Under the pieces are notes generated by a model. The model worked only from the letters and a program-made list of their open reading frames with translations. It was not told where the DNA came from and searched no databases. A DNA stretch of 64,000 nt from Zootoca vivipara. Its lineage: Eukaryota. The translations under genes were made by a program, and so were the position numbers. Every line of letters starts with the position of its first letter. Position 1 is the first letter of the stretch. The stretch spans positions 75,268,001 through 75,332,000 of the forward strand of contig NC_083278.1 of NCBI RefSeq assembly GCF_963506605.1, written 5' to 3'. This document shows, in pieces, positions 2,731 through 55,141 of the stretch.

Positions 2731-3000
2731 GTTGTTGGCATCCATCTGTCTTGAGAGACAATGGAAGAGTAATGTCAAACCACTGGAGAGTTACAGCACC
2801 TGCTGTGGCTGTAGAGACCAATACGGGAGAGACATGTTTTATTGCAGCTGGGGCAGATGAAGGCATCCAGTTTTGCTACTACATATGCACCATAGTGGGT
2901 TCTCTCTCTCTCTCTCTCTGCTCCTCCCAGTGGTCATTTCTTCTTTGGTCACTGCTGTGGATACACACCTTGACCGTTTCCAGGCACTGTAGTTGTTGCG
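2731..3000 (-). mobile_element. RTE-clade LINE 3' end
   Basis: Minus strand encodes FICPSCNKTCLSRIGLYSHSR, an RTE-type C-terminal zinc finger, and ends ...GAGACAGATGGATGCCAACAAC-like. Confidence 0.75.
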
Positions 3001-3129
3001 TCCCATGAGGAAACCTGAAATGATTTACAACATACATGCATGATACAGAGTTGTATATATTAGAACAGTTTAAAACAACAACAGTACATACATAAAATCT
3101 GCTGATATCATAATGCCATTATACAAATA

Positions 3130-3500: not shown

Positions 3501-4933
3501 AGCTGGATAGGTCAGTTGGTAGAGCATGAGATTCTTAACCCCAGGGTTGCTCAGAATTTTTTATTCCTAATCCTGCTCAGATGCTGTATGCCCACTTGTG
3601 TGGATGGAAAATTGTATGATGAACATCTAGGGAAAGTCAATTGCAAATTTACAAAGTACTGAGATAAGCAATAGAGAACAGATTGGCAGGTGGGTCTGTT
3701 ATGCCTTCTTCTCTGGGAGATGGGAATGCTTAGCAGAGTTTGATCACCTATGTCCTTCACTACAACTTAGTGAATCTCCCCCCATTTTTTTGTCAGCTAA
3801 AGCTGACTTCCATGTTTTCTGTATAGTATTTTAACATATTTGCAACCCTGCAAATATTTTCCCACACCTCTCAGTGTATTTTCTCATCACTTTCCTTATT
3901 GCAAAAAGTCTAATCTTTTGTTGTAGTGAGTTTCTTGCTCCAGAGCTCCAAACCAGCTTTAATTGTGCAACCTGAATTTGCCAGTACTGTATATGATTGA
4001 ATCCCACTCAGAAATAGTGACAGTCTGTAAGTGCCCTTGGGCACAGTGGAACAAACAAATCACAAATCTTTCTACTTTTGATGTCTCTCGTTAAGAGACC
4101 TTGCTTGCTGCTCCCAGAAAATGCATTTGTTTTCAGTCAAAAGCTGGCTTTTCATAGGGTTGTTATATAGATACTTTATAATAAGCTGTGTTTATCAATG
4201 TGTTTCATATGCACTAGTAAAGTGGAATAGGCTACAGTTACCTTAATCATGTGTTTTAGCAAGAATTCACTGATTTAGTCTAAAACAATATTATCTACAG
4301 TCTATTTTAAAACTATATTGCAGTATTATGTGTAACTTACATAGTGTTAAGAAAATGAATGGCCATTTAGTACATCTAAAGGCCATTTAGTACATCTATT
4401 ATATCTCCCTAGTAGGCAAGGAGGACTATTAGGTAACTTTGTATGTACATATTTCAGGGCCAAAATAGTTAACATCCCCCCCCTCTCCACTGTAGGAGGA
4501 GGGCATGTCCATTTTTGATTGTCACACCAGTGCTAGAGGACAGGCTGTTTGACGTGTTTCTCCATGTCATTTCTCTGATAGAAATATTCTACTCAAAAAC
4601 AATTAGCCCTGCTGGGGTAAATGATTGCTCACTTGCTGTCTCTCTCCAGGACTAAGAGCATTTCTCTGTGTTTGTGTTTCTGAGGGGATTTCTCTGAGTA
4701 AATAGTGGAGTACTTGATAGCTACCAAAAGTGGACTCATTGATTTGCTGCTTCCAAATGTGTGCATGTGTCTAAAGATCCAAGTATGGATCTCTCACATC
4801 TGTTTGGTTTTTCACTTTGGTATCTCCAATTGACTGAACTTTTTGTTGCAAATGTCAAGTGACCACCTACCACTTGCTAGAACTTCATGAGCTCAATAAT
4901 AAAATCCTATCTTGAAAGCTGGCTGGGCTACTC

Positions 4934-13536: not shown

Positions 13537-13790
13537 CGTTGCTCGGTCCCAGCTCCTGCCAACCTAGCAGTTCGAAAGCATGTCAAAGTGAAGGAAGATA
13601 AATAGGTACCACTACAATGGGAAGGTAAACGGTGTTTCCCGTGTGCTGCTCTGGTTTGCCAGAAGCGGCTTTGTCATGCTGGCCACCTGGAAGCTCTACG
13701 CAGGCTCCCTCGACCAATAAAGCGAGGTGAGCGCCGCAACCCCAGAGTCAGTCACGACTGGACCTATTGGTCAGGGGTCCCTTTACCTTT
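13537..13790 (+). mobile_element. Sauria SINE, 5'-truncated
   Basis: Body CCTGCCAACCTAGCAGTTCGAAAGC..., tail GGGGTCCCTTTACCTTT. TSD ACTAACATTTAGCT at 13523-13536 and 13791-13804. Confidence 0.92.
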
Positions 13791-14495
13791 ACTAACATTT
13801 AGCTAAGATGGAGGAGTTGGAGCTTTTGTATTATAGAATGCTTAATTTTTCAGCAGCATTTAGAAAGGAGCTTGTCTCAATAGTTTATGACATTGGGGCA
13901 GATGAAAAGGTGATTACAGACAAATTTTTAATTCTGTCAGGCTTGTTAACTGATTTAAAAAGCATGACAAATAAATGACCTTGCTTTCTTTATTGCATAA
14001 TGACAAGGATAAGGATTAACTTTCACATGTGCATATTTGGGTTTGAAAGTCCTCCTTCGAGGACATGCCATAATATTTATTGCCATAGAACATTTTAGAT
14101 ATCCCATAATCTAAGATTCTTATGAATTATGACTGATAAAATATAAACTGGAAGTTGCTGCCCTGACCCTATTCACATGTAAGTTTTGTAACATGATAAA
14201 CTGCTGAAAAGCTGAACTACACTGTCGGGCTGTGCGATAAATCACCATACCATTGAATACCTGTTTTGAAATAACATTCTGATAAGTGTTTCAACAAGGT
14301 AAGCAAAAGGTGGACACTTAACAGTTTCCCAGGGGGTAGCTCAGCTGACTGGATACTTTACAGATACTTTGCAGATACTGTACTTTGCAGGCATGGTGTC
14401 TCCAGCTTTGTTTTCCCTCCTAACCAATAAGAAATGATGATAAGCCCTCACACAAACCAGCAAACTCTTTCAGCTTCACCAGTATCCTTCCACTT

Positions 14496-14817
14496 AGGTA
14501 AAGGGACCCCTGACCATCACGTCCTGTCGCGGACGACTCTGGGGTTGCGGTGCTCATCTCACTTTACTGGCCAAGGGAGCTGGTGTACAGCTTCCGGGCC
14601 ATGTGGCCAGCATGACTAAACCACTTCTGGCAAACCAGAGCAGCGCACGGAAACACTGTTTACCTTCCTGCCGGAGCGGTACCTATCTATCTACTTGCAC
14701 TTTGACATGCTTTTGAACTGCTAGGTTGGCAGGAGCAGGGACTGAGCAATGAGAGCTCACCCCGCTGCGGGGATTCGAACTGCCGACCTTCTGATCAGCA
14801 AGTCCTAGACTCTGTGG
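14496..14817 (-). mobile_element. Sauria SINE nested in a hAT-like element
   Basis: Reverse-complement match to the copies at 17353 and 54785, including the tRNA-like B box (GGGATTCGAAC on the + strand). Confidence 0.92.
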
Positions 14818-17352: not shown

Positions 17353-17690
17353 GGGACCCAGGTGGCACTGTGGGTTAAACCACAGAGCCTAGGGCTTGCT
17401 GATCAGAAGGTCGGCGGTTCAAATCCCTGCGACAGGGTGAGCTCCTGTTGCTTGGTCCTAGCTCCTGCCAACCTAGCAGTTCAAAAGCACGTCAAAGTGC
17501 AAATAGATAAATAGGGAAGATAAACGGCGTTTCTGTGTGCTGCTCTGGTTTGTCAGAAGCTGCTTTGTCATGCTAGCCACATGACCTGGAAGCTGTACGC
17601 TGGCTCCCTCAGCCAATAACGCGAGATGAGCGTGCAACCCCAGAGTCAGTCACGACTGGACCTAATGGTCAGGGGTCCCTTTACCTTTAC
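17353..17690 (+). mobile_element. Sauria SINE, full length
   Basis: tRNA-related head GGGACCCAGGTGGCACTGTGG...GGTTCAAATCCC and tail CCCTTTACCTTT. Confidence 0.93.
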
Positions 17691-20729: not shown

Positions 20730-20977
20730 AGGTAAAGGGACCCCTGACCATTAGGTCCAGTCGTGACCGACTCTGGGGTTGCGCGCTCATCTCGCATTAT
20801 TGGCCGAGGGAGCCGGCGTATAGCTTCCAGGTCATGTGGCCAGCATGACATAGCCGTTTCTGGCGAACCAGAGCAGCACATGGAAACGCCGTTTACCTTC
20901 CCGCTGTAGCGGTTCCTATTTATCTACTTGCATTTTGACGTGCTTTCGAACTGCTAGGTTGGCAGGAACCTAGCAGT
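20730..20977 (-). mobile_element. Sauria SINE, 5'-truncated, with a short terminal inversion
   Basis: AGGTAAAGGGACCCC tail. Ends ...CTGCTAGGTTGGCAGG followed by inverted AACCTAGCAGT. TCTTATATTA lies on both sides. Confidence 0.92.
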
Positions 20978-27994: not shown

Positions 27995-28247
27995 GTATAC
28001 ACCATTATTAATGTGAATTAGAGAAGGTAGCCGAAAATACTGAATGACATGTCTCTTTCAAAATTATTACAATTTCCATGGGCAGTATGATAGACTGCTG
28101 TGCTGCTCATGAACAGGGTTTTTAAGCTCCACCTTAAAATGGTACTAGATTCAGGTTGGTAGCCGTTTTGCTCTGACACAGTCAAAATAAATAAAAAAAT
28201 TAAGAAATTGTCCAATAGTACCTTAGAGACCAACTAAGTAGTTCTGG

Positions 28248-28285
28248 GTATAAGCTTTCTTGTGCATGCACACTTCTTCAGATAC
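28248..28285 (-). ncRNA. Minimal hammerhead ribozyme (C11.1 mutated to A at the base of stem II)
   Basis: Minus strand reads GUAU-CUGAAGA-A-GUGUGCAUGCACAA-GAAA-GCUU-AUAC. Confidence 0.85.
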
Positions 28286-28414
28286 ACTGAAACAGAAGTC
28301 ACCAGACCCTTATATATAATTCTCATATATATACAGTACCCTTATATATATTCTGAGAAATACCCCACCCCACCCTACCACTATATATAAGGGTCTGGTG
28401 ACTTCTGCTTCAGT

Positions 28415-28452
28415 GTATCTGAATAAGTGTGCATGCACACGAAAGCTTATAC
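28415..28452 (+). ncRNA. Minimal hammerhead ribozyme (G8 mutated to U)
   Basis: Plus strand reads GUAU-CUGAAUA-A-GUGUGCAUGCACAC-GAAA-GCUU-AUAC. Confidence 0.85.
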
Positions 28453-30025
28453 CCAGAACTACTTAGTTGGTCTCTACCTAAGGTGCTATTGGACAGTTTC
28501 TTAAAATGGTAGTTCCCCAGTCCTTCTGGGCATCCCCCAGAATAGTTATTTCCCCCTACATCTACTGTATATTTGGAAAGTGGTTTGTATATTTGCTACA
28601 TACCCTCCAATATTCCTTAGATTTATTTAATGGAATGCAGGAGAAGTCTAGAAAGCAGATTCTGAAAACTGGGAGATAGAATTGCCAAAATGGAGAGGTG
28701 CACACAGCCAGGAGCTGCAAAGCAAAGGAAGTTAAAATATTTGGCTACATGCCTGTAGTCTACATTTCAAAGTAGTAATGATGTGGTGGTGTGGTGATGA
28801 TGAAGCTTATAGACGTGAACAGCCAAACTGCTGTGGTTTCATGAAATGTTAATGAAAATTCTAGCAGGAAGCTGAATTCATGAACAATGGAATATCTGGA
28901 AACAAGCAGGCATCTGAGAGAGAAGTGTAAGGTCAATTTGCCTGGGGTGAGCCCTCACACAGGCCCTAGGGACAATAGGAGTTGTGTGGGCAGTGAAGGA
29001 AATGAACACTCTAAAGCTGAATCAGAAGAGGTCCCAGGAGATGGAAAGCCAAGGAACTTAATGCCTTGAGGCTTGTTGAATCTGCCACATTATTTTACTC
29101 ACTATTGAAGGAAGCTATGTTAGAGATAGGGCAAATGACAGATAGAGAGTGTGAAGGCTTAATAGACTTGGCAGAAAAGAAAATGGGGTTGAACATTATT
29201 GTGTCGGGAGTATAGCGCTATGAGATCTGATTAGAGAAAAGAGAAGTTGTAGCTGCATGGAGCAACTCGAGGAAACAGGTTTTTTTTTGTTTAATGCAAA
29301 AAAACCTTACACAAAAACACAATGTTTCTTCAGATTCTATAAGTACATGACAGATCCAAGTAAATCGAAATACAATATTGTGCAATGTTACAAAGTTCTA
29401 TTAAACCTGTCAAAAAATTTTGAACCAATGGAGACTATTCAAGGAGAAAATGTTAACAGTGAAGTATATATTTAGAGTCAAAATCTTAGCACTATTGAAG
29501 ATTTTAATAGAGGTTTGGAAGCCAAACTAGCTTGTGCAGAAGAATGTTCTCAAATTTGGTTAAAGATACATGATTAAAAAATGTCATGTACTAAAAGATG
29601 CTCTTATACTTCCATGGCCCGATAATTGAGCTAGCAACAGCAGTAACACTAATGTAAGTAAATAGCTGCATTTCTCAAAATGCTTTGGCAACTAGGTCAA
29701 AGGTTCGATCTGTGTGGCCTGTTAGTGTTTAGAATTAGTTTGTGTCAATATTTCCCCAGACGCTTCCAGACTGCAAGAACATGAAGCAGCTCCTCTTATT
29801 TTACTGACTTGCTGGTTATTTCCAAACATGCAATTTGGGAAAAACCATCAGCAAAATTAAATATATTTTTAATAACTGCAGTAAGTAATATGTAGGTCTT
29901 ATTATCTCAGTCTTGCTGTCGTTTCCTTCTTTATATAACGGGAACTGCTAAGGATTCGGGGTTTTTTTTAAGTAAGGGAGGGTGTTTTTGTTGTTAAAAA
30001 CAAATTACTGTGATGCAGTAGCAGT

Positions 30026-30114
30026 CATAGCTGCCAAGTTTTCCCTTTTCTCGCGAGGAAGCCTATTCAGCATAAGGGAAAATCCCTTAAAAAAGGGATA
30101 ACTTGGCAGCTATG
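30026..30114. mobile_element. 89-bp hAT MITE
   Basis: Perfect 15-bp TIR CATAGCTGCCAAGTT; perfect 8-bp TSD GTAGCAGT. Confidence 0.9.
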
Positions 30115-30437
30115 GTAGCAGTTGGTGTGTTAGCTGTCAATTTCTGATTCAGTGTAAAACTACTTTATCACATCGTTTGTTGTAATCTCAGACCTTTCTC
30201 ACACACAGTGCTTTTTCTGCACAGAAAACAATCCACACAGCATAAAGCTTAAAATCTGCATATATGGTAACATGTAAGAAATGTACCGGTATGTACACCG
30301 ACTGGAAAACAGTCACCAATCACAGTTTCCCAGTGTGGGTATAATTAAATTAAACACACACATTTATTAGCATTGATCACTTGGGGAGCAATCCTATGTA
30401 CAAGAAGCAAGCCCTTGTAAATTAGGATGGCATAAAG

Positions 30438-30672
30438 CAGGGGTCCCCAAAATAAGGCCCGGGGGCTGGATGCGGCCCAATCGCCTTCTAAATCTGGCCC
30501 GCGGATGTTTTTACATGGGTAGAATGTGTCCTTTTATTTAAAATGCATCTCTGGGTTATTTGTGGGGCATATAGGAATTCGTTCAATTTTTTTTTCAAAA
30601 TATAGTCCGGCCCCCCACAAGGTCTGAGGGACAGTGGACCGGCCTCCTGCTGAAAAAGTTTGCTGACCCCTG
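30438..30672 (-). mobile_element. hAT MITE family A
   Basis: CAGGGGTC TIRs; perfect 8-bp TSD GCATAAAG. Confidence 0.9.
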
Positions 30673-30809
30673 GCATAAAGGTACAACAGATCCAAAGCTT
30701 GTTCAACTGCTGCTCTACCTAAGCCAAGCAAAGGAAAACAAGCCTTTCAGTATTGTCCTACATCAGGTTGTCCGGTCACGCGTCGTGATCACACTGAATG
30801 GGCTTACGA

Positions 30810-30945
30810 CAGGCATCCTCAAACTGCGGCCCTCCAGATGTTTTGGCCTACAACTCCCATGATCCCTAGCTAACAGGACCAGTGATCAGGGAAGATGGGA
30901 AATGTAGTCCAAAACATCTGGAGGGCCGAAGTTTGGGGGTGCCTG
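30810..30945. mobile_element. hAT MITE family B (136 bp)
   Basis: TIR CAGGCATCCTCAAACT...CCCTCCAGATGTTTTGG; imperfect TSD GCTTACGA / GCTTGGGA. Confidence 0.88.
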
Positions 30946-32989
30946 GCTTGGGATCTAGTTAGCCTAATCTTCCTCTCCTGGTCCTGCCCTTAGAATGTCC
31001 CCCGGAATGCTGAGCCAGGATGAGCAAGTTATGCTGTCTTATCTTTGACTGAGCCAGGGTTCAGGGCAGTGTTAGACACTGAGATATGAAAGCTAGGAGC
31101 TAAATGGTACCTTAAACCTAGGTTATGGGTGCAACAATGGGTTGCTTAGGTGTGCTTTTTTTATAACAAGAATACAAAGGTGAAAATGAATGAACTGCAG
31201 CTAAAATATTATGTTCATTTTTCACATGGTCTAGTCCTTCCCCTGCCCACCCCCCTAATATTCTTAAGAGGGCCTCTTCTCCAGTCTTCAAAAAGTAGCT
31301 GGAGGCAGGGAGGCAGAAAAAGGGCCTCCTTTCCTTCCACTCTGCAGTTTTAATCTGAAATCTTAGGCGCAGAACTGCGCCCAAAGCTCAGAAACCGCTT
31401 GCACTAATGAAATTCCCTGTTGCAAAATGTGCCTGGAACAATGGGAGCTTCGAACACTGATTGGGGGACCAAGGAAGAACAGTACATAAGTCAAATCACA
31501 GGTTGCAAGGATCCACAGTTCCATGAGAGCTCAAAAGGCAAGACTAGCCACATATTTCCTATGCTTTCCTTCTGAAAGATGGGCCAGGCACAGCATTTAG
31601 TGCGCATTGGATTTACTCCCAGCTGCATCCCGTGAACAGGGAGACTCCTGTTTAACAGGCAGGTCCTTGGCTGGAGAAACTAAGGGAAGCATCTCTGGAA
31701 GGGAGTTAATGGGAGGCACTGCTGAGAGTTTGCCTGAGTCGTCTTTGGAGGGCAGATTTCCACCCGCTAACCCACTGGGACCCTCTCCAGGATCCAGCAT
31801 TTATTGGGGTTTGGAATCTATTACCCACATACCACTGGGACCCTTCTAACTCCCCAAGCTCCTCCTACACCTTCTTAGGGTCTCACTCCCCACTCCACGA
31901 CACCTCCATGGCATTTGTGACAATACACAAGTTTTGAGTTACGTGCTCAAACGTGACAGTTTTGAAACTAGTAGATGCAGCTGAGTAGAATATATATGAT
32001 ACACTGCAGTATTTTCCTTTGAAGTATTATAAAAATAGATGGCAAATTTTCTGCTCGTACATGATTAGAGTTTGAATTTAAGCCTGTACGTTATCATGTG
32101 GATTATAAATGTGTGCCAGTGAAATTTATAGTACTGTAATATATTTTGAAAGACTCCCTATTGTTTCAATATGTTGGACCGTTTTCCATTCCATGTCATT
32201 TATGAAAGCCACATTGTTTCTTCCAGGAAAGCAGACAACACATCAACCCAGATTCTCGGAAGATTTGTATTTCAGCATGTTCTTTTAATTTAAAGCAACT
32301 TTTGCACTTTTAAAATAGCATTCTCCAAATACTTCACTGTAGCACTAGTGAAGGTGGCCAGGTCAGGCAGTATTATCTGCAGTAATGATAACTCTAATGT
32401 TCCAAGTACGGTAATTTATGTGTGCATAAACAAATCACTCTATAATGTTATTAGATATACTGCAGTGACCTGGTTTGAATGCAATGCTAAAGCAAACGAT
32501 GACTTAGCATGAACGTATGAGTGTTTGAGTTCCCAAAGAGGAGGCTGTAGCTGCTTCGTTCCTTCTATGGCCCTGCTGCTGCAGTGCTGCTCTGAGCTAA
32601 GCCATGGATTGGCAGAGAGTGCCATCTGAATCTGAGCTTGTAGTTTGCTTCACTCCACACAAACCATGACCTGGAATTATGGTTTGTTCTATGGCTTACC
32701 GCTTGTGTTTTGTCTGGAGCAAACAAATTATGAATCTGGACTTGGATGACATTCTTAGAATCATAGAATTGTAGAGTTGGAAGGCACCCTGAGAGTCATC
32801 TAGTCCTTCCCACTGCAATGCAGGAATATGCAAATGACCCTTATGAGGATCAAACCCATGACATTGGCATTATCAGCACTACACTCTTAACCAACCAAGT
32901 CCATCAATATGTCCACACTGCAGCTACAGATTGTGAGGCTTGAATTGTATGGCCCATGTGTTTTTTTATATAGCATTGTCTCTCTACAG

Positions 32990-33125
32990 CAGGCATCCCC
33001 AAACTTCGGTCCTCCGGATGTTTTGGACTACAATTCCCATCTTCCCCGACCACTGGTCCTGTTAGCTAGGGATCATGGGAGTTGTAGGCCAAAACATCTG
33101 GAGGGCTGCAGTTTGGGAATTCCTG
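32990..33125. mobile_element. hAT MITE family B (136 bp)
   Basis: Same family in opposite orientation; perfect TSD CTCTACAG. Confidence 0.9.
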
Positions 33126-33434
33126 CTCTACAGTGCTACAAAGGTACCAGACCTGTATGTCTTATTTCCAGCATTCCTTGTGGGAAACGGCTTGTTCCTT
33201 TTTTGAACATCTGGATGATGAAAGAGAACTTGTTTAGGTATTCTAGCAGGAGATGGCTCTCATGGCCAAGCACCAAATCCACTAATCTGGGCATATGGAT
33301 GTTTGCAGTTGTTATTGCTATTTATATAATGCCCTTCATCCGAAGATCACAGAGTAGTTTACAATATAATTCTGAAGTAAAATAAAAAAAATTCCTTCAG
33401 TAGCACCTTAAAGACCAACTAAGTTTTTATTTTG

Positions 33435-33472
33435 GTATGTGCTTTCGTGTGCATGCACACTTCTTCAGATAC
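33435..33472 (-). ncRNA. Minimal type I hammerhead ribozyme in the PLE 3' region (U16.1 mutated to A)
   Basis: Minus strand reads GUAU-CUGAAGA-A-GUGUGCAUGCACAC-GAAA-GC-A-C-AUAC: CUGANGA and GAAA cores, palindromic stem II, GUAU/AUAC stem I. Confidence 0.85.
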
Positions 33473-33659
33473 AGTGAAATGGAAGTTTCCAGGCACTTAT
33501 GTAGAGAAGGGGTGGGGAGGGGTGGGGATGGGGAGGGGGGATCACTCAGAAGGGTGGTGGAAATGGGTGATTGACTGACTGATAGCTGTTGATGACCGCA
33601 AACGACTGCAAATGGTTTTGCATGAAAAAGCAAGGGTTGAGATGGCTGAAGATCGCTTA

Positions 33660-35066
33660 TCATGTATAATGAGATAAGAATCCGATATCTCTGTTCAAAC
33701 CAGGTCCCTCCATGGTTTTGAGCTTGGTGATAAGTTGCAATTCAGCAACTTCTCTTTCCAGTCTATTTCTGAAATTCTTTTGTAGTAAGACAGCTACTTT
33801 GAGATCTTGTATAGAATGTCCTGGGAGATTGAAGTGTTCTCCTACTGGTTTTTCTGTCTTCTGGTTCCTGATGTCAGATTTATGTCCATTTATCCTTTGG
33901 CGTAGGGTTTGGCCTGTTTGTCCAATATAGTGAGCTGAAGGGCACTGTTGGCATTTGATGGCATACACAATGTTAGAGGATGAGCAATTAAATAGTCCTG
34001 AGATGGTATGTTGGATATTGTTGGGGCCAGTAATGGTGTTGTCTGGGTGTATGTGGCAGCAAAGTTGGCATCTGGGTTTATTGCAGGCTCTGGTACCAGT
34101 GTCCATGTTAAGTCTGGTGGTTGTATTATTGTGGGTGAGGAGTTGTTTAAGATTGGGTGGCTGTCTGTAGGCAATGAAAGGTCTTCCTCCCAGAGCTTGA
34201 GAAAGGGAGCGGTCATTGTCCAGGAGAGGCTGTAGATCTCTGATGATGCGTTGTACTGTTTTAGCTTGGGAGCTGTATGTGATGACTAGTGGTGTTCTGT
34301 TATTTTCTTTTTTGGGTCTGTCTTGCAGCAGGTTCTCTCTAGGTATCTGTCTGGCTCTGTTGATCTGTTGTTTAACTTCATCAGGTGGATATTTTAGTTC
34401 TAAAAAGGTTTGCTGTAGATCTCTTAGGTGAGATTCTCTGTCTGTAGAGTTGGAACAGATGCGGTTGTAACGTAAGGCCTGGCTGTATACGATGGATTGT
34501 TTGGTATGTTTGGGATGGTAGCTAGAAGCATGTAGATATGTTTGTCGGTCAGTTGGTTTTCTGTATAAGGTGGTGTCTATATGTCCATCCTGTATTTTTA
34601 TAGTAGTGTCCAAAAAATTTATTTCTTGCATAGATTGGTTCATTGTTAGGTTGATGGTGGGGTGAAAGTCATTGAATGTCTGGTGGAAGGTTTCCAGGGT
34701 CTGTTGTCCATGTGTCCAGATAATAAAAATATCGTCAATGTATCGCAGGTACAGGAGAGGTTTGAGTGGGTAGGAGTTAAGGAAACGTTGTTCTAAATCT
34801 GCCATGAAGATGTTGGCATACTGTGGGGCCATGCGGGTGCCCATGGCTGTGCCGCTGATCTGGAGGAACAGGTCATCACCAAATTTGAAGTGGTTGTGGG
34901 TAAGGACAAAGTGGCAGAGTTTGGTAGCAAAGTCCGCTGTGGTTTTATCTGAAATGGTGTTCCTTATGGCTTGTAAACCATCATTGTGTGGGATGTTGGT
35001 ATATAGAGATTCCACATCCATAGTGGCTAGTATAGTATTGTTAGGAAGATTGTTCAAATATTGTAA
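33660..35066 (-). CDS. PLE reverse transcriptase / GIY-YIG endonuclease ORF (N-terminally truncated, no internal stops)
   Basis: RT motifs ATMDVESLYTNIP, QISGTAMGTRMAPQYAN and YLRYIDDIF. Cys/His linker CNKPRCQLCCH. GIY-YIG motif IVYAIKC...HYIGQT...R...H...E...N. The first ~12 codons of the predicted 480-aa ORF are probably flanking DNA. Confidence 0.93.
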   Translation of the reverse strand, partial: LQYLNNLPNNTILATMDVESLYTNIPHNDGLQAIRNTISDKTTADFATKLCHFVLTHNHFKFGDDLFLQISGTAMGTRMAPQYANIFMADLEQRFLNSYPLKPLLYLRYIDDIFIIWTHGQQTLETFHQTFNDFHPTINLTMNQSMQEINFLDTTIKIQDGHIDTTLYRKPTDRQTYLHASSYHPKHTKQSIVYSQALRYNRICSNSTDRESHLRDLQQTFLELKYPPDEVKQQINRARQIPRENLLQDRPKKENNRTPLVITYSSQAKTVQRIIRDLQPLLDNDRSLSQALGGRPFIAYRQPPNLKQLLTHNNTTTRLNMDTGTRACNKPRCQLCCHIHPDNTITGPNNIQHTISGLFNCSSSNIVYAIKCQQCPSAHYIGQTGQTLRQRINGHKSDIRNQKTEKPVGEHFNLPGHSIQDLKVAVLLQKNFRNRLEREVAELQLITKLKTMEGPGLNRDIGFLSHYT

Positions 35067-36704
35067 CAGGGATAAAGCATATGGTAAGGGTCTTTCTAAC
35101 ACCCCCTCTTAGGTAGATGTAGTTTTGACAGCTACTCGTGTGTGTGTGTGTGTGTGTGTGTGTGGCTAAACCAGCTTCAGAGTGAATCGGAGTCTGAGCA
35201 ACCCCACTCAGAATCACCAGGCTTGCTCTTGTATAAGCAATACCTCAAGCAGATACTGCAATTACTGTTCATATCTGACAGCTCAGCTTGATGATTATTT
35301 TTTTGGTCTTATAACTTCAAAAACACATCAGTAACAATATTAGTATGAGTCATTCCTAATGAAAATTTGATCAGTTGCATGAACATTTTTTTATTAGAAT
35401 CAATCAAGAGCACATACTTAATGCCACTGTCTGCTAAAAGCGATTTGACCTTGTTTCATAGTGACTTGGTACAATAGAGAATTTAAGATGGTAAGTGAGA
35501 AACAGCAATAATATGAGGCACATCCACAAACCTTTCCATCCACTTTTCAAGTATTGCTAAAGACTGTGGATTCATGGAAGTCACATCAAATTGAGGGTTA
35601 CGGTTATGATGGCAGATAAATGCATAGTCAGTTTTAACTCAGTTGCATGATTGAAGTAGAAGTGCTGTGCTGACTATGCAAAAGACGGTTTTGATACTAA
35701 GCTGCCAGTGTTGAGCACATTAATATTCTCTCAGGACTTCATTTCAATCTGGCAATGCCAGAATCAGGACAGCAAAGCTGAGATTAATGGCAAGACTTGG
35801 AGACTTTGTGCAATGTTGTTGCACATAGCCTATATTATCTCTGTGCTGTTGTGTAACCTTGTTCTTGATCAAAATGATAGTAATGATTTTATGCCTTAAC
35901 CACATGTCTTTATGTTTGACAAGCTCAGGGCTGCTATATACATAAAGGTTTTAATCTGTATTACAAATCTAAACCCTCTAATATCCTCTGTGTTCAGAAT
36001 TTAGTTTTCCATTTGTCTCAATATATTTAAATTAATTAAACTTTATTCCCTATGATCAGTTAAGCCATAGTATGTAAGTGCTCCCAGATAGAGCCTATTG
36101 CACAGCACCAACAATCTCTAAACAGATTAGTAAAATAAGTGCTGTGGGAACAGCCATTTCCAAATTAGGTAATAGAATCATAGAATAGTAGAGTTGGAAG
36201 GGATCCCGAGGGTCATCTAGTCCAACCCCCTGCAATGCAAGAATCTCAACTAGATCATACATGACAGATAGCCATCCAACCAACCTCTGCTTAAAAACCT
36301 CCAAGGGACCCATTGAGCTGGTCTACTCTTGGAGATTTAAAGGAATTCTGGATGCTCTGGGTGAACATTCCAGTTGCCATGACTTCTGCTTCTATGGAGG
36401 CTCTGGTCTTGCTTTAGAATTGTGAGATGGAAATAGTTACCAACATAATCACTCCCTAGTGTTTTGGTTTGCGGGAATAGTTAGATTTGGGAATTGGTTT
36501 TCGGCATGGACAATACTTTGCTACATTGCTGCTGATTTTCCTTTTGAATCATTCATGCTCTCAATGGAATGGGGAAAAACCCCTACTCTGGCATTTATTT
36601 TTGCTGTCCACGCTTGACCAGCGTGTATTTGGAAATGCATCCCAAATTTTTTGTAGCATAAGAGTTCTAACATTCTTCTTTTTTTTGTCTCTGTCCTTCA
36701 ATAG

Positions 36705-36824
36705 GATGATGAAGTGGTTCTGCAGTGCACTGCTACTGTTCACAAAGAACAACAGAAATTGTGCCTTGCCGCAGAAGGATTTGGCAACAGGCTCTGCTTC
36801 TTGGAATCCACTTCAAATTCAAAG
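36705..36824 (+). CDS. RYR2: Ryanodine receptor 2, coding exon 2 (120 nt, phase 0-0)
   Basis: Pyrimidine tract plus ATAG acceptor, AAG|GTACTG donor. Translates [40 protein letters not shown], the RyR2 N-terminal sequence. Confidence 0.98.
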
Positions 36825-38108
36825 GTACTGGAAACTGTCTTGTTCTAATGCAGTGTTGAACATTACCGACATAACAGATCTTTTCTTCTTGTTGAAATAA
36901 TGTCCTCTGTGATGCAGAGTAAGTGTTACAGCAGGCAGAGTTGAGTTGCATTCCAGCATGTTATGTTTTTCTTATATGATTCACAACATATTATACCCAG
37001 CAAAATAAACTTGATGCTAATATACATAATGACAAGCTAAATTCTGAACAACTTTTTATCATACAGAAACCTTTGAGGAAGACTGCGTGACCTTCTTCTC
37101 CTTCACCCTACAGCCCCTCCTCACTTCTCCAAAATCTACTCTGGACTCTCCAGAGCTAATTTTGAGGATGGAGGCTCGGCTGTAGGTGGAAGTTTGCTCA
37201 TGTGATGTTGATTTCAGCCCATGTATTACAGATTTTTTCTGTATTGTTATCCTGTTGATGGACATGTGGAGAAAATGCATGAATTAGATTAATTTGCCTT
37301 CTTTCCTTTTTTTTTTGGAGAATGCTAATTTAACTTTTCTAGTGCAAGGTGTTCAGTGTGGAGAGTGAGGTTAAATAAATAACATCTTATCCAAGTGATA
37401 TATGTCCTCTTCAAGTTTCATAGCATATTAACAGCTAACATGACAGCCATTGCCAGTCAGTTTGTACTAGTGTACTGATCAAATATCATTCTTCCTAAGT
37501 TTCGTGGGATTCATGATGCTTTACTGTGTGTCGGTCTGCAGACTGCAGGTACTTTTATATTGTAACCTGCCCTGTGATCCTCGGATGAAGGGCTGTTTAG
37601 AAATGCAATAAATAAGAGCAATAAGAACAATAAATACTTGTACCATGTCATGTGGACCACAGGAAGCAAGGCATCATGGAGATTTGTATGTCTTTAAATT
37701 GTCTGCAAAATCCTTTTCTGACTATTGTCCATCTCATTGGTGCTGACGTTACCCTCCAATCTTCACAAACTTTGCTTGAAGCAAGTGCCCCTACAAGAGG
37801 GTACCTATCCCCATGCTCTTGAGACAGTCGTAGGTGAAAATGGATCCAGGATCTACACAGCAGAGACTTATCAGAAATCACCTTTCCTCACATGGCTATC
37901 TTCATAATCTGTGCTATCAAATGGGAGTCTACCAGTCAAAGATTTTTGAAGAAAAACATTTTGGACCTAAAATATTTTGGGGTCCACTATAGCAGGGCTG
38001 TCCAACTTCCAAGGGACTGCGGTCTACAACCACTATAATAAAACTGGCAGTGAGATACCCATTGGATTGGCTCATCAAAGTTGTTGAGCTTTTTTTAGGG
38101 AAGCCATG

Positions 38109-38140
<32 letters not shown>

Positions 38141-38290
38141 ATCCCGCAATCGACCCATAGATCACGATCGATCTGTTGGACAGGAATCAGTTGTGGCAAG
38201 TAAAGGATTCAGTGAATTATGACAATTTAATTTGTTAAAAGGATGTAAGCAGCACTAGTTATCTGTGGACTGTTGTCCATTATTTATTTA

Positions 38291-38612
38291 AAACAAAATA
38301 AAAAAATTCCTCCCAGTAGCACCTTAAAGGTAAAGGGATCCCTGACCATTAGGTCCAATCGTGACCGACTCTGGGGTTGCGCGCTCATCTCGCGTTATTG
38401 GCCGAGGGAGCCGGCGTACAGCTTCCAGGTCATGTGGCCAGCATGACTAAGCCGCTTCTGGCGAACCAGAGCAGCACATGGAAACGCCATTTACCTTCAC
38501 CTTAGAGACCAACTAAGTTTGTCATTGGTATGAGCTTTTGTGTGCATGGAAGGAATTTTTTTATTTTGTTTTGACTATGTCAGACCAACACGGCTACTTA
38601 CCTGTAACTAGA
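38291..38612. mobile_element. Short inverted PLE pseudo-LTR derivative interrupted by a Sauria SINE, 12-bp TSD
   Basis: ATTATTTATTTA at 38279-38290 and 38613-38624. Half hammerhead at 38528-38548. The 3' end ...CGGCTACTTACCTGTAACTAG is homologous to the reverse complement of 28145-28185. Confidence 0.88.
38327..38497 (-). mobile_element. Sauria SINE, 5'-truncated, nested in the PLE derivative
   Basis: AAGGTAAAGGG tail and Sauria SINE body, flanked by CACCTTA direct repeats. Confidence 0.92.
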
Positions 38613-39918
38613 ATTATTTATTTAGTTTCGGATAAAATTTTAAATTTTGGCGAGTAAAGGAAATATACTAAAATAATCTTGAATATAAGGCCTTTATTAT
38701 TTTTTCTGCCTACAAATTCCTTCAGCACAACCTTAATTAAATTTATTATCTCCACTGTGGTGCAGACTAATGTTTTACTTTCAGTCAGTCATTTTGAATG
38801 TATTATTCATCATTATAAAAAATTAATTGGAATATTAATGATTCATTATAATAGCAGTGGTTCTGAGGATTTCATCTGCCCTGCTCACTTGTAACTGAAT
38901 AATTCCCAGTAATAAAATATGTAAGGGTAGGTAACTTCAGTATTCTATAGTTTTATAAAATATTATTTAACAAATAAATTTTAATTAAACAGCAAATGTA
39001 TCCTCCCCAGTACTTCATTGTTGGTCCATAAATAAGATGTCCATGTAATCATATTACCATTTCTTTTTCTTTAGTTGGTTTTTTTTAAAAAAAGACTTAA
39101 GAACAACAGATGCTTCTCAGGCATCTAGAAAACTAAGATGCATTTAGTAAAAAAATTAATATAGAAAAGAACAGGTGACAGATCTAACAAATTCTAAGTT
39201 CAGAAGTACAACGTAAAGTGGATACATTATGCGTTTTTCCCCTGCCAATAATTTACAGCTCTTTCTAGTATGTCTGGCTTTAGCCCTCAGTGGTGGGAGT
39301 ATCCGAATAGAAAGGGAAAACATAAGAAATGGGGAAGGCTGAAGAAAGAGCAGTATTTTTAAAGCATGTATAAGGGGTCTCACTGAGAGAAAAGGAAGTG
39401 AAAAGAAACAGTGACAATGGAGTTAAAACAAAAGATGAGAAGGGAAAAATGGAGAAGATGATGGTGAAGAAGAAGAGTGCATGGAAACTGCTTTATCACA
39501 TAAAGGAGATGCAAAAACTAAAGAAGCTAAAGGACAAGCACAATGAGGATAGGAGCTAGGACTTTATAAAACAAATGACAAGGAGAAGACAACTGAGTAG
39601 ATATCAACCCAATACAACTGTTTTATCCAAAGAAAAAGCAGAAGATGTGAATACTTTTTTTGTGAAGGGAATGCTTCATTGCTTGTATGGAGACTTGCTG
39701 TCGTTCATGCTTCACAAGTTGCAGTGGTTTCATAGTCACTGCACTACTTGAGAAATAATCTTGCAGAGTGAGCAACTGGGGCAGGTGAGCAGTAAATCTT
39801 GGGCTTTAATCTGGGTTGGTTCATGTAAACTGCAGCTGGCACAGGCGGCGACTGATGGACTCTTGACCTGGGACTCGGCTAGATAGGTAAAGAAAATGTG
39901 TTTTATATGCGTTGTATA

Positions 39919-40312: not shown

Positions 40313-40662
40313 AAGGTAAAGGACCCCTGACAGTTAATGTCACAAATAACTCTGGGGTTACAGTGCTCATCTCGCTTTACTGGCTGAGGGAGCCGGCGTT
40401 TGTCCGCAGACAGTTTTTCCGGGTCTTGTGACCAACATGACTAAGCCGCTTCTGGCGAAACCAGAGCAGCGCACGGAAACACTGTTTACCTTCCCACCGG
40501 AGCGGTACCTATTTATCTACTTGCACTTTGATGTGCTTTCGAACTGCTAGGTGGGCAGGAGCAGGGACTGAGCAACGGGAGCTCACCCTATCGCGGGGAT
40601 TCGAACCGCCGACCTTCCGACCGGCAAGCCCTAGGCTCAGTGGTTTAGACCATGGCACCACC
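40313..40662 (-). mobile_element. Sauria SINE, near full length
   Basis: Reverse-complement match to 54785-55141. Confidence 0.92.
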
Positions 40663-54784: not shown

Positions 54785-55141
54785 GGGGATGCGGGTGCGC
54801 TGTGGTCTAAACCACAGAGCCCTGGGCTTGCTGATCAGAAGGTCGGCGGTTCGAATCCCCACGATGGGGTGGGCTCCTGTTGCCCGGTCCCTGCTCCTGC
54901 CAACCTAGCAGTTCGAAAGCACGTCAAAGTGCAAGTGGATAAATAGGTACCGCTCCAGCGGGAAGGTAAACGGCGTTTCCGTGCGCTGCTCTGGTTCGCC
55001 AGAAGCGACTTAGTCATGTTGGCCACATGACCTGGAAGCTGTAGGCCGGCTCCCTCAGCCAGTAAAGCAAGATGAGCACCGCAACCCCAGAGTCATCTGC
55101 GACTGGACTTAATGGTCAGGGGTCCCTTTACCTTTACCTTT
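54785..55141 (+). mobile_element. Sauria SINE, full length
   Basis: Head with GGTTCGAATCCC B box, (ACCTTT)n tail. Imperfect TSD ATTCTTGGCATTCAG / ATTCTTGGGACTCAG. Confidence 0.93.

Follow-up and report, generated by a model that had tools for sequence, protein, structure and literature searches.

Minimal type I hammerhead motifs in the pseudo-LTRs of Penelope-like elements (PLEs) have been described across metazoans, turtles and snakes among them (Cervera and De la Pena 2014, PMC4209133). The motifs analysed here, from a window of 64,000 nucleotides of Zootoca vivipara DNA, share with these the pseudo-LTR location, a short stem I with a long stem II, a bulged base following A9, the G10.1–C11.1 pair and a palindromic stem III, and they likewise occur in thousands of mostly solitary copies, with opposite-strand pairs 100–700 bp apart. 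The published motifs are highly variable and number up to ~9,000 per genome by that study's own descriptor, whereas 17,721 letter-identical motifs are found here, a very young burst. The order of reverse transcriptase (RT), linker and GIY-YIG endonuclease is shared with the Neptune and Nematis PLEs (Craig et al. 2021, PMC8557442; Arkhipova et al. 2013, PMC3846280), as are partial tandems, 5' truncation, an adjoining inverted copy, a 30–40-bp tail at one end only and a target-site duplication, of ~10 bp in those elements versus 12 bp here. A CX2-5CxxC linker between RT and endonuclease defines Neptune/Nematis (PMC8557442), and our assignment is made by this linker alone, which does not tell the two clades apart. 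The Poseidon element of Anolis carolinensis (PAc; Frangieh et al. 2024, PMC11167929) resembles the present family in its AT-rich targets, in the hammerhead of its repeat and in a tail delimited by two 3' end points; neither shows RNA ends at the cut site. PAc is described without the linker that is present here, and its frame runs from stem II with reverse-transcription starts inside the frame, whereas both end points precede the first ATG here. Non-LTR retrozymes (bioRxiv 10.64898/2026.07.22.740005), like the short insertions in the window, are non-coding, carry a type I hammerhead and derive from PLE pseudo-LTRs. Their defining form is a head-to-tail repeat in which two or more successive units carry the motif, whereas the stubs in the window are single and inverted.

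RYR2 exon 2, named in the preliminary description, lies at 36705–36824 on the plus strand, where the encoded residues matched residues 17–56 of the protein; exon 1 is located ~6.2 kb upstream of the window start. Three cut-short Penelope-like insertions occupy the introns near exon 2. Their presence and their PLE identity were borne out, but their clustering around the exon is nothing special: the surrounding 414-kb region holds 12 insertions of the element, and simulated placement put three inside 10.2 kb in 27% of runs, which rules out local grouping as a special feature. The three are independent products of truncation and inversion that differ in age.

Element 1 is a real 355-bp insertion (interior 28145–28499) with identical 12-bp target-site duplications on both sides (28133–28144 and 28500–28511). 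It consists of arm A (28145–28318, minus strand; reference 2863–3032, 75%), an old-subfamily pseudo-LTR end with tail, a central inversion junction (28319–28362) unique to this element among 237 loci compared, and arm B (28363–28499, plus strand), identified by arm mapping as an inverted pseudo-LTR end without tail. The arms differ by five substitutions and one 4-nt indel, with two of the five substitutions in the hammerhead core (chance 0.095), and are predicted to form a hairpin of -205 kcal/mol that would bury the motif of arm B. Element 3 is framed by a 12-bp AT-rich duplication (38279–38290, repeated at 38613–38624) and combines a tail-less arm on the minus strand (38291–38548), ending within stem II, with a short inverted arm with tail on the plus strand (38549–38612; reference 2968–3032). 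The longer arm is split by an unrelated SINE-like repeat of 171 bp (38327–38497) with its own 7-bp duplication and six further copies in the window. As elements 1 and 3 are only 75–78% and 83–94% identical to the young family, respectively, they stem from older subfamilies.

Element 2 (33374–35065, minus strand) is a young, 5'-truncated copy comprising a partial RT, a CX4CxxC linker, GIY-YIG and the pseudo-LTR; the tail is absent, and a search for a target-site duplication revealed none. The associated reading frame (33663–35108, minus strand) matched Pfam RVT_1 (E 2.1e-12) and GIY-YIG (E 7e-5), in agreement with the RT/GIY-YIG frame reported earlier. The linker was matched at residue 342 of this frame, and reading of the sequence further places two Cys between VYAI and YIG and two His behind, a feature of endonuclease-bearing PLEs. 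Over 1692 nt, element 2 is 99.6% identical to a young full-length unit, and it begins at codon 434 of 901. Being the youngest of the three and lacking 433 of the 901 codons, it did not give rise to the two stubs, and the proposed arrangement of a driver with its progeny at this locus is thus unsupported.

Four hammerhead motifs with four distinct lesions were found exactly where previously located, each having one broken element of the minimal type I hammerhead: motif A (28248–28285, minus strand) with C11.1>A, motif B (28415–28452, plus strand) with G8>U, motif C (33435–33472, minus strand) with U16.1>A, and partial motif D (38528–38548, minus strand), which is truncated within stem II, lacks the first core strand and carries G12>A at a CpG. 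Relative to RYR2, motifs A, C and D lie on the antisense strand; motif B is the sole sense copy, and its G8>U is a change of the lethal type. The classification as a pseudo-LTR hammerhead with palindromic AGCU stem III is supported by an intact natural copy, in which stems I and II fold, AGCU is self-complementary and the core letters are present. Rfam models run on the entire window gave 25 matches at E ≤ 5, none to a hammerhead family. The monomer folding energy was no better than that of shuffled sequences (z -0.26) and was left out of the evidence.

At the level of the genome, the 17,721 exact matches to the intact core face 0 for the reversed control, and the motif is therefore not a product of chance. 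Variants at U16.1 number 95 against these 17,721, while 16 of the first 100 matches listed (hand count) and 15 of 72 arms differ at N7; variation within the family falls on the free positions of the motif. The full unit measures 3,030 bp, also occurs in tandem with this period, and holds a single 901-codon frame, in a natural copy of which Pfam recognised RT followed by a C-terminal GIY-YIG; the motif is located ~130 nt upstream of the start codon. All 91 scored protein matches were 99–100% identical. Partial tandems with pseudo-LTRs, 5' truncation, a frequent inverted partner arm, target-site duplications and an optional tail characterise the copies as those of a PLE. The 3' ends of the arms fall into two clusters (39/82 and 42/82) separated by ~38 nt, the length of the tail, matching reports in PMC11167929 and PMC8557442. 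In summary, this is a young Penelope-like element with the Neptune/Nematis linker and a further member of an already known element type, which makes the finding in the window ordinary. No title or abstract opening in the literature covered, a scope that excludes most subscription papers and Repbase, describes the family or a hammerhead hotspot of 5' ends.

Such a hotspot was observed when the 5' ends of the arms were mapped with a 28-member panel, a single reference having introduced bias. Within 35 nt at the front edge of the motif lie 31 of 82 ends, a stop rate 8- to 9-fold above that elsewhere, and 0 of 82 at the hammerhead cut site. This pattern bears on the role of the Penelope hammerhead in replication. 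Tentatively, it may mean that the motif, when folded, or else transcription beginning at the front edge, ends reverse transcription and triggers a strand switch, giving rise to thousands of short inverted stubs; we regard this as possible, with the odds somewhat against it. Among indexed data sets, none containing the sequence is catalogued as RNA. RNA data, comprising three raw-read runs from one study assigned by species label alone, contain reads that span the cut site and no accumulation of ends there. The one go-back joint (3693 to 3610; seven reads in one run, with eight extra letters) lies away from the cut site and comes from a library type ill-suited to circular RNA. The missing ends among both arms and transcripts could mean that the motif serves the pseudo-LTR solely as a structure or promoter, with no member of the family cleaving, even as a dimer. 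It would fit such a role that ribozyme mutants of the anole Poseidon left insertion in vitro unaffected, cleavage being protein-dependent (PMC11167929), and that eight of nine Xenopus dimers failed to cleave. Conversely, subfamilies only 75–78% alike have retained the catalytic letters while N7 and H17 vary, as is consistent with selection on catalysis in the element lineage, and a wholly non-cleaving motif appears unlikely.

Whether the short elements constitute a distinct retrozyme-like family, multiplied as complete units by the Penelope protein, had been left undecided between this and simple truncation. Short stubs with their own target-site duplications are indeed very common, their starts often fall at nearly the same place, and a 598-bp four-copy tandem with intact motifs elsewhere in the genome (L092) fits the form of non-LTR retrozymes. 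In the window, however, tandem arrangement is absent and the stubs are head-to-head single insertions. Among 237 loci, the centre of element 1 found no spanning match and the single match spanning that of element 3 has a different junction, so that no junction or set of unit boundaries is common to multiple copies; the search scored 40 of 3,299 genome candidates, and rare sister copies could escape it. The best two-arm relatives are 68–78% identical, with different centres in the three compared. We therefore consider a separate family highly improbable and retain truncation products, the other option put forward earlier.

The four lesions are most likely the result of neutral decay after three independent insertions of different age, a reading to which we assign a probability of roughly 85%. 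By analogy with the anole Poseidon, the protein would nick AT-rich DNA and reverse transcription would start at one of two internal sites; head-to-head stubs could then arise when synthesis stops early and begins a second time at the other nick. The motif presumably cuts solely as a dimer, for example in tandem transcripts, so that lone intronic copies would be inert, hidden from selection and subject to decay by point mutation, probably fastest at the C11.1–G12 CpG. Among 29 old-subfamily copies picked by tail alone, the whole core is kept in nine, one of which is intact at 13 positions, or four if C11.1>U is tolerated; a damaged core is the usual state in this subfamily. Changes in this sample amount to 7/161 in the non-CpG core, 11/288 in stem II and 6/106 in the upstream flank. 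Thus, the comparison of core and flank suggested in the preliminary description gave no excess in the core. The young sample showed 3/740 and 7/1059 for non-CpG core and stem II, respectively; its upstream-flank rates of 11–16% mix subfamilies and were excluded as a neutral rate. By hand count, eight of the ten core-damaged motifs among the first 100 matches listed carry G12>A, the lesion of motif D.

The preliminary description had named selection as the other option, and the lesions near exon 2 could be the trace of a host that removes or inactivates hammerheads cutting its pre-mRNA, as the retrozyme depletion reported for Xenopus introns (2026 preprint) might suggest. Strands and genes pooled, the catalytically severe G12>A exceeds C11.1>U, which leaves a G-U pair, by 1,935 to 1,589 genome-wide (ratio 1.22, p 6e-9); CpGs outside the ribozyme skew alike (11 to 7), in a small sample. 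Locally, sense copy B bears the G8 change, and the core changes are somewhat improbable: besides the value for arms A and B, motif C's lesion is one of four private substitutions of element 2 (chance of one in the core of a young copy, 0.03), and the core is intact in all 29 other young copies chosen by ORF. Against this stand the antisense orientation of three of the four motifs, the predicted burial of motif B, and core rates that do not exceed those of stem or flank. Moreover, an exact intact sense core survives in another RYR2 intron, ~0.6 kb upstream of a coding exon, and complete RYR2 cores are intact at 13 positions in two of five sense but zero of four antisense copies. Motif-bearing stubs are also deeply covered within other transcripts, with G12>A in 2–6% of reads under a 95% likeness filter that favours intact copies. 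Host selection at this locus is accordingly judged improbable, and neutral decay is preferred. With a young, abundant family and many open 901-codon frames, an annotated genome would permit a well-powered test of intronic ribozyme purging. The G12>A excess, the core change of motif C, the core differences between arms A and B and the G8 change of motif B count against neutrality.

The four hammerhead motifs and their four lesions were confirmed where the preliminary description had placed them: motif A (28248–28285, minus strand, C11.1>A) and motif B (28415–28452, plus strand, G8>U) in element 1, motif C (33435–33472, minus strand, U16.1>A) in element 2, and the partial motif D (38528–38548, minus strand, G12>A) in element 3. 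Of these Penelope-like insertions, element 1 (28145–28499, 355 bp) and element 3 (38291–38612) are flanked on both sides by 12-bp target-site duplications; element 2 (33374–35065, minus strand) carries a frame matching RVT_1 and GIY-YIG. RYR2 exon 1 lies about 6.2 kb upstream of the window start, exon 2 at 36705–36824 and the last coding exon near contig C3:75,512,900, all on the plus strand. Thus, intron 1 holds elements 1 and 2, intron 2 holds element 3, and motif B alone of the four is on the pre-mRNA strand. Element 3 was later interrupted by a different repeat; a SINE-like repeat, presumably similar to the squamate Sauria SINE, lies inside it (38327–38497) and elsewhere in the window (13621–13791, 14496–14667, 17516–17689, 20730–20900, 40349–40493 and 54962–55136; seven copies). 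A 136-bp MITE-like hairpin repeat with inverted ends occurs in two copies of opposite orientation (30810–30945 and 32985–33133) and gives weak, sub-threshold Rfam mir-5408 matches. A further short repeat end has two copies in RYR2 intron 1, 88% alike (32756–32827 and 36173–36244).

The intact 34-nt hammerhead motif has 17,721 exact matches in the 1.44 Gb genome (48 contigs), as compared to none for the reversed control. Stems I and II are predicted to fold, with the palindrome AGCU as stem III; the predicted folding energy was not better than that of shuffles, and Rfam returned no hammerhead match to the motif. Freeing the non-core positions gave 22,531 matches; by hand count, 35 of the first 100 listed departed from the motif, among them 16 with a change at N7 and 12 carrying C11.1>U. 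When 11 core positions were freed instead, 19,732 matches were obtained, and a hand count of the first 100 listed gave 10 that differed, 8 of them through G12>A alone. Variation of N7 and H17 by inheritance with fixed catalytic letters fits selection for the motif in the element's own lineage. In the protein search, all 91 scored matches (of 9,772 candidates) showed 99–100% identity, and many lay in frames that stay open for 925 codons between stops. The tandem array L091, elsewhere in the genome, is built of 3,030-bp units, in which the hammerhead motif precedes the ATG of a 901-codon frame by 133 nt. The protein linker contains CX4CxxC, a type that Craig et al. (PMC8557442) describe as a feature of the Neptune and Nematis clades. 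The family is a further member of an already known kind of element.

Element 2 shares 99.6% identity with L091, has four private substitutions in 1,660 nt and starts at codon 434 of 901. Conversely, identity to this young family is 75–78% for element 1, whose closest relatives are about 90% alike, and 83–94% for element 3, so that these stubs (short truncated pseudo-LTR insertions) are older and of different subfamilies. The proposal of a coding driver with short progeny at the locus was not supported. When insertions were simulated at the local density (12 per 414 kb), three fell inside 10.2 kb in 27% of runs. A distinct non-autonomous family, likewise proposed, was not borne out: among 237 loci compared (from a non-exhaustive search, 40 scored of 3,299 candidates), none spanned the element 1 centre and one spanned the element 3 junction, with a different junction. 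Head-to-tail units, required by the retrozyme definition in a 2026 preprint, were absent from the window. At L092:320–2742 (G000:C1, ~2.778 Mb), a 5′-truncated copy forms a four-unit, 598-bp tandem with an intact motif in each unit; judged by sequence, it would match the published retrozyme definition and would permit dimer cleavage.

The four lesions most likely represent decay. In an old-subfamily sample (29 copies, chosen by the tail alone, an extra ~38 nt on one type of 3′ end), 20 copies had no whole core, and one of the remaining nine was intact at 13 positions (four when C11.1>U was allowed). Changes amounted to 7/161 in the non-CpG core, 11/288 in stem II and 6/106 in the upstream flank, and to 7/24 (C11.1) and 10/26 (G12) at the core CpG. 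A young sample had 69 whole cores, 59 of them intact, and showed 3/740 changes in the non-CpG core and 7/1059 in stem II. U16.1 variants are few genome-wide (95 vs 17,721 intact), mixed in letter and scattered in position, and the motif C lesion is therefore private. The rates in both samples side with neutrality on the question, raised earlier, of selection against hammerheads. Against neutrality, G12>A exceeds C11.1>U at the same CpG across the genome (1,935 vs 1,589, p = 6e-9); other CpGs lean in the same direction (11 to 7, a small sample).

Selection could also be read from motif C, as one of four private changes lies in the core (chance 0.03), and from arms A and B, the oriented pieces of element 1, as two of their five differences do (chance 0.095); both values are, however, qualified by the post hoc choice of the window in a genome that contains these copies by the many thousands. 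Retrozymes are depleted in Xenopus introns according to the 2026 preprint. Across RYR2, whole cores intact at 13 positions number 2/5 in sense and 0/4 in antisense (small numbers). An exact intact sense core lies in an RYR2 intron at contig C3:75,487,586 (L152, G000:C3:75487551–75487718), about 0.6 kb upstream of a coding exon and with an inverted partner at 1.1 kb. A −205 kcal/mol hairpin is predicted between arms A and B, with motif B buried inside. Their pairing (28200–28504) would place ~120 bp of RNA duplex in intron 1 of RYR2, where it might serve as a substrate for A-to-I editing.

The 5′ ends of 82 arms (L172–L241) were mapped with a 28-member reference panel. The arms were picked by a 35-nt stretch 3′ of the motif (ranks 1–86 among 100 listed of 13,601, minus four tandem units). 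Counted from core C3, 31 of the 5′ ends fell at −20 to +14, three at +15 to +27 and none at the cut site (+28 to +32). The stop rate per nt was 0.012–0.013 at −20 to +14 vs 0.0013–0.0018 elsewhere, in a sample in which arms of one insertion are non-independent, all lie within the initial 4 Mb of a single contig (G000:C1), and an absent subfamily reference could produce false ends. Old copies showed the same pile-up by eye, and loose RNA read ends clustered at L091 3563–3570. The pile-up could arise from a stop imposed by the folded structure of the motif or from run-off at a transcription start; an internal promoter has been reported for Drosophila Penelope (PMC2377424). The 3′ ends of the same 82 arms fell at +76 to +96 (39 arms) and +122 to +132 (42 arms), with one elsewhere. 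These two clusters correspond to the tail described by Craig et al. (PMC8557442) and to the two reverse-transcription starts of the element of Frangieh et al. (PMC11167929). Elements 1 and 3 each consist of two arms joined head to head, of which a single one bears the tail, as PMC8557442 and PMC3846280 also describe. The same type of motif, together with solitary copies and pairs on opposite strands, is described by Cervera and De la Pena (PMC4209133).

Raw RNA reads from three runs of a single study (~6% of each run) and one contig set were aligned to L091:3250–3950. Depth reached hundreds to thousands across the stub (3562–3705) and almost zero across the frame start. In the raw runs, 60–94% of aligned reads continue into unrelated sequence, and the RNA is thus attributed to stubs embedded in other transcripts. 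At the cut site (3597/3598), no accumulation of molecule ends was listed at a threshold of one fifth of depth, in libraries whose fragmentation may hide ends. A single run, X23, was ~500 deep over the endonuclease end of the frame (L091:3250–3400), the frame start being nearly silent in every run. Directly after the stop codon (L091:3379–3458), 2–5 reads in each of the three raw runs skip 78 nt with GC..AG ends, which might be explained by a small intron or by a pseudo-LTR subfamily with a deletion.
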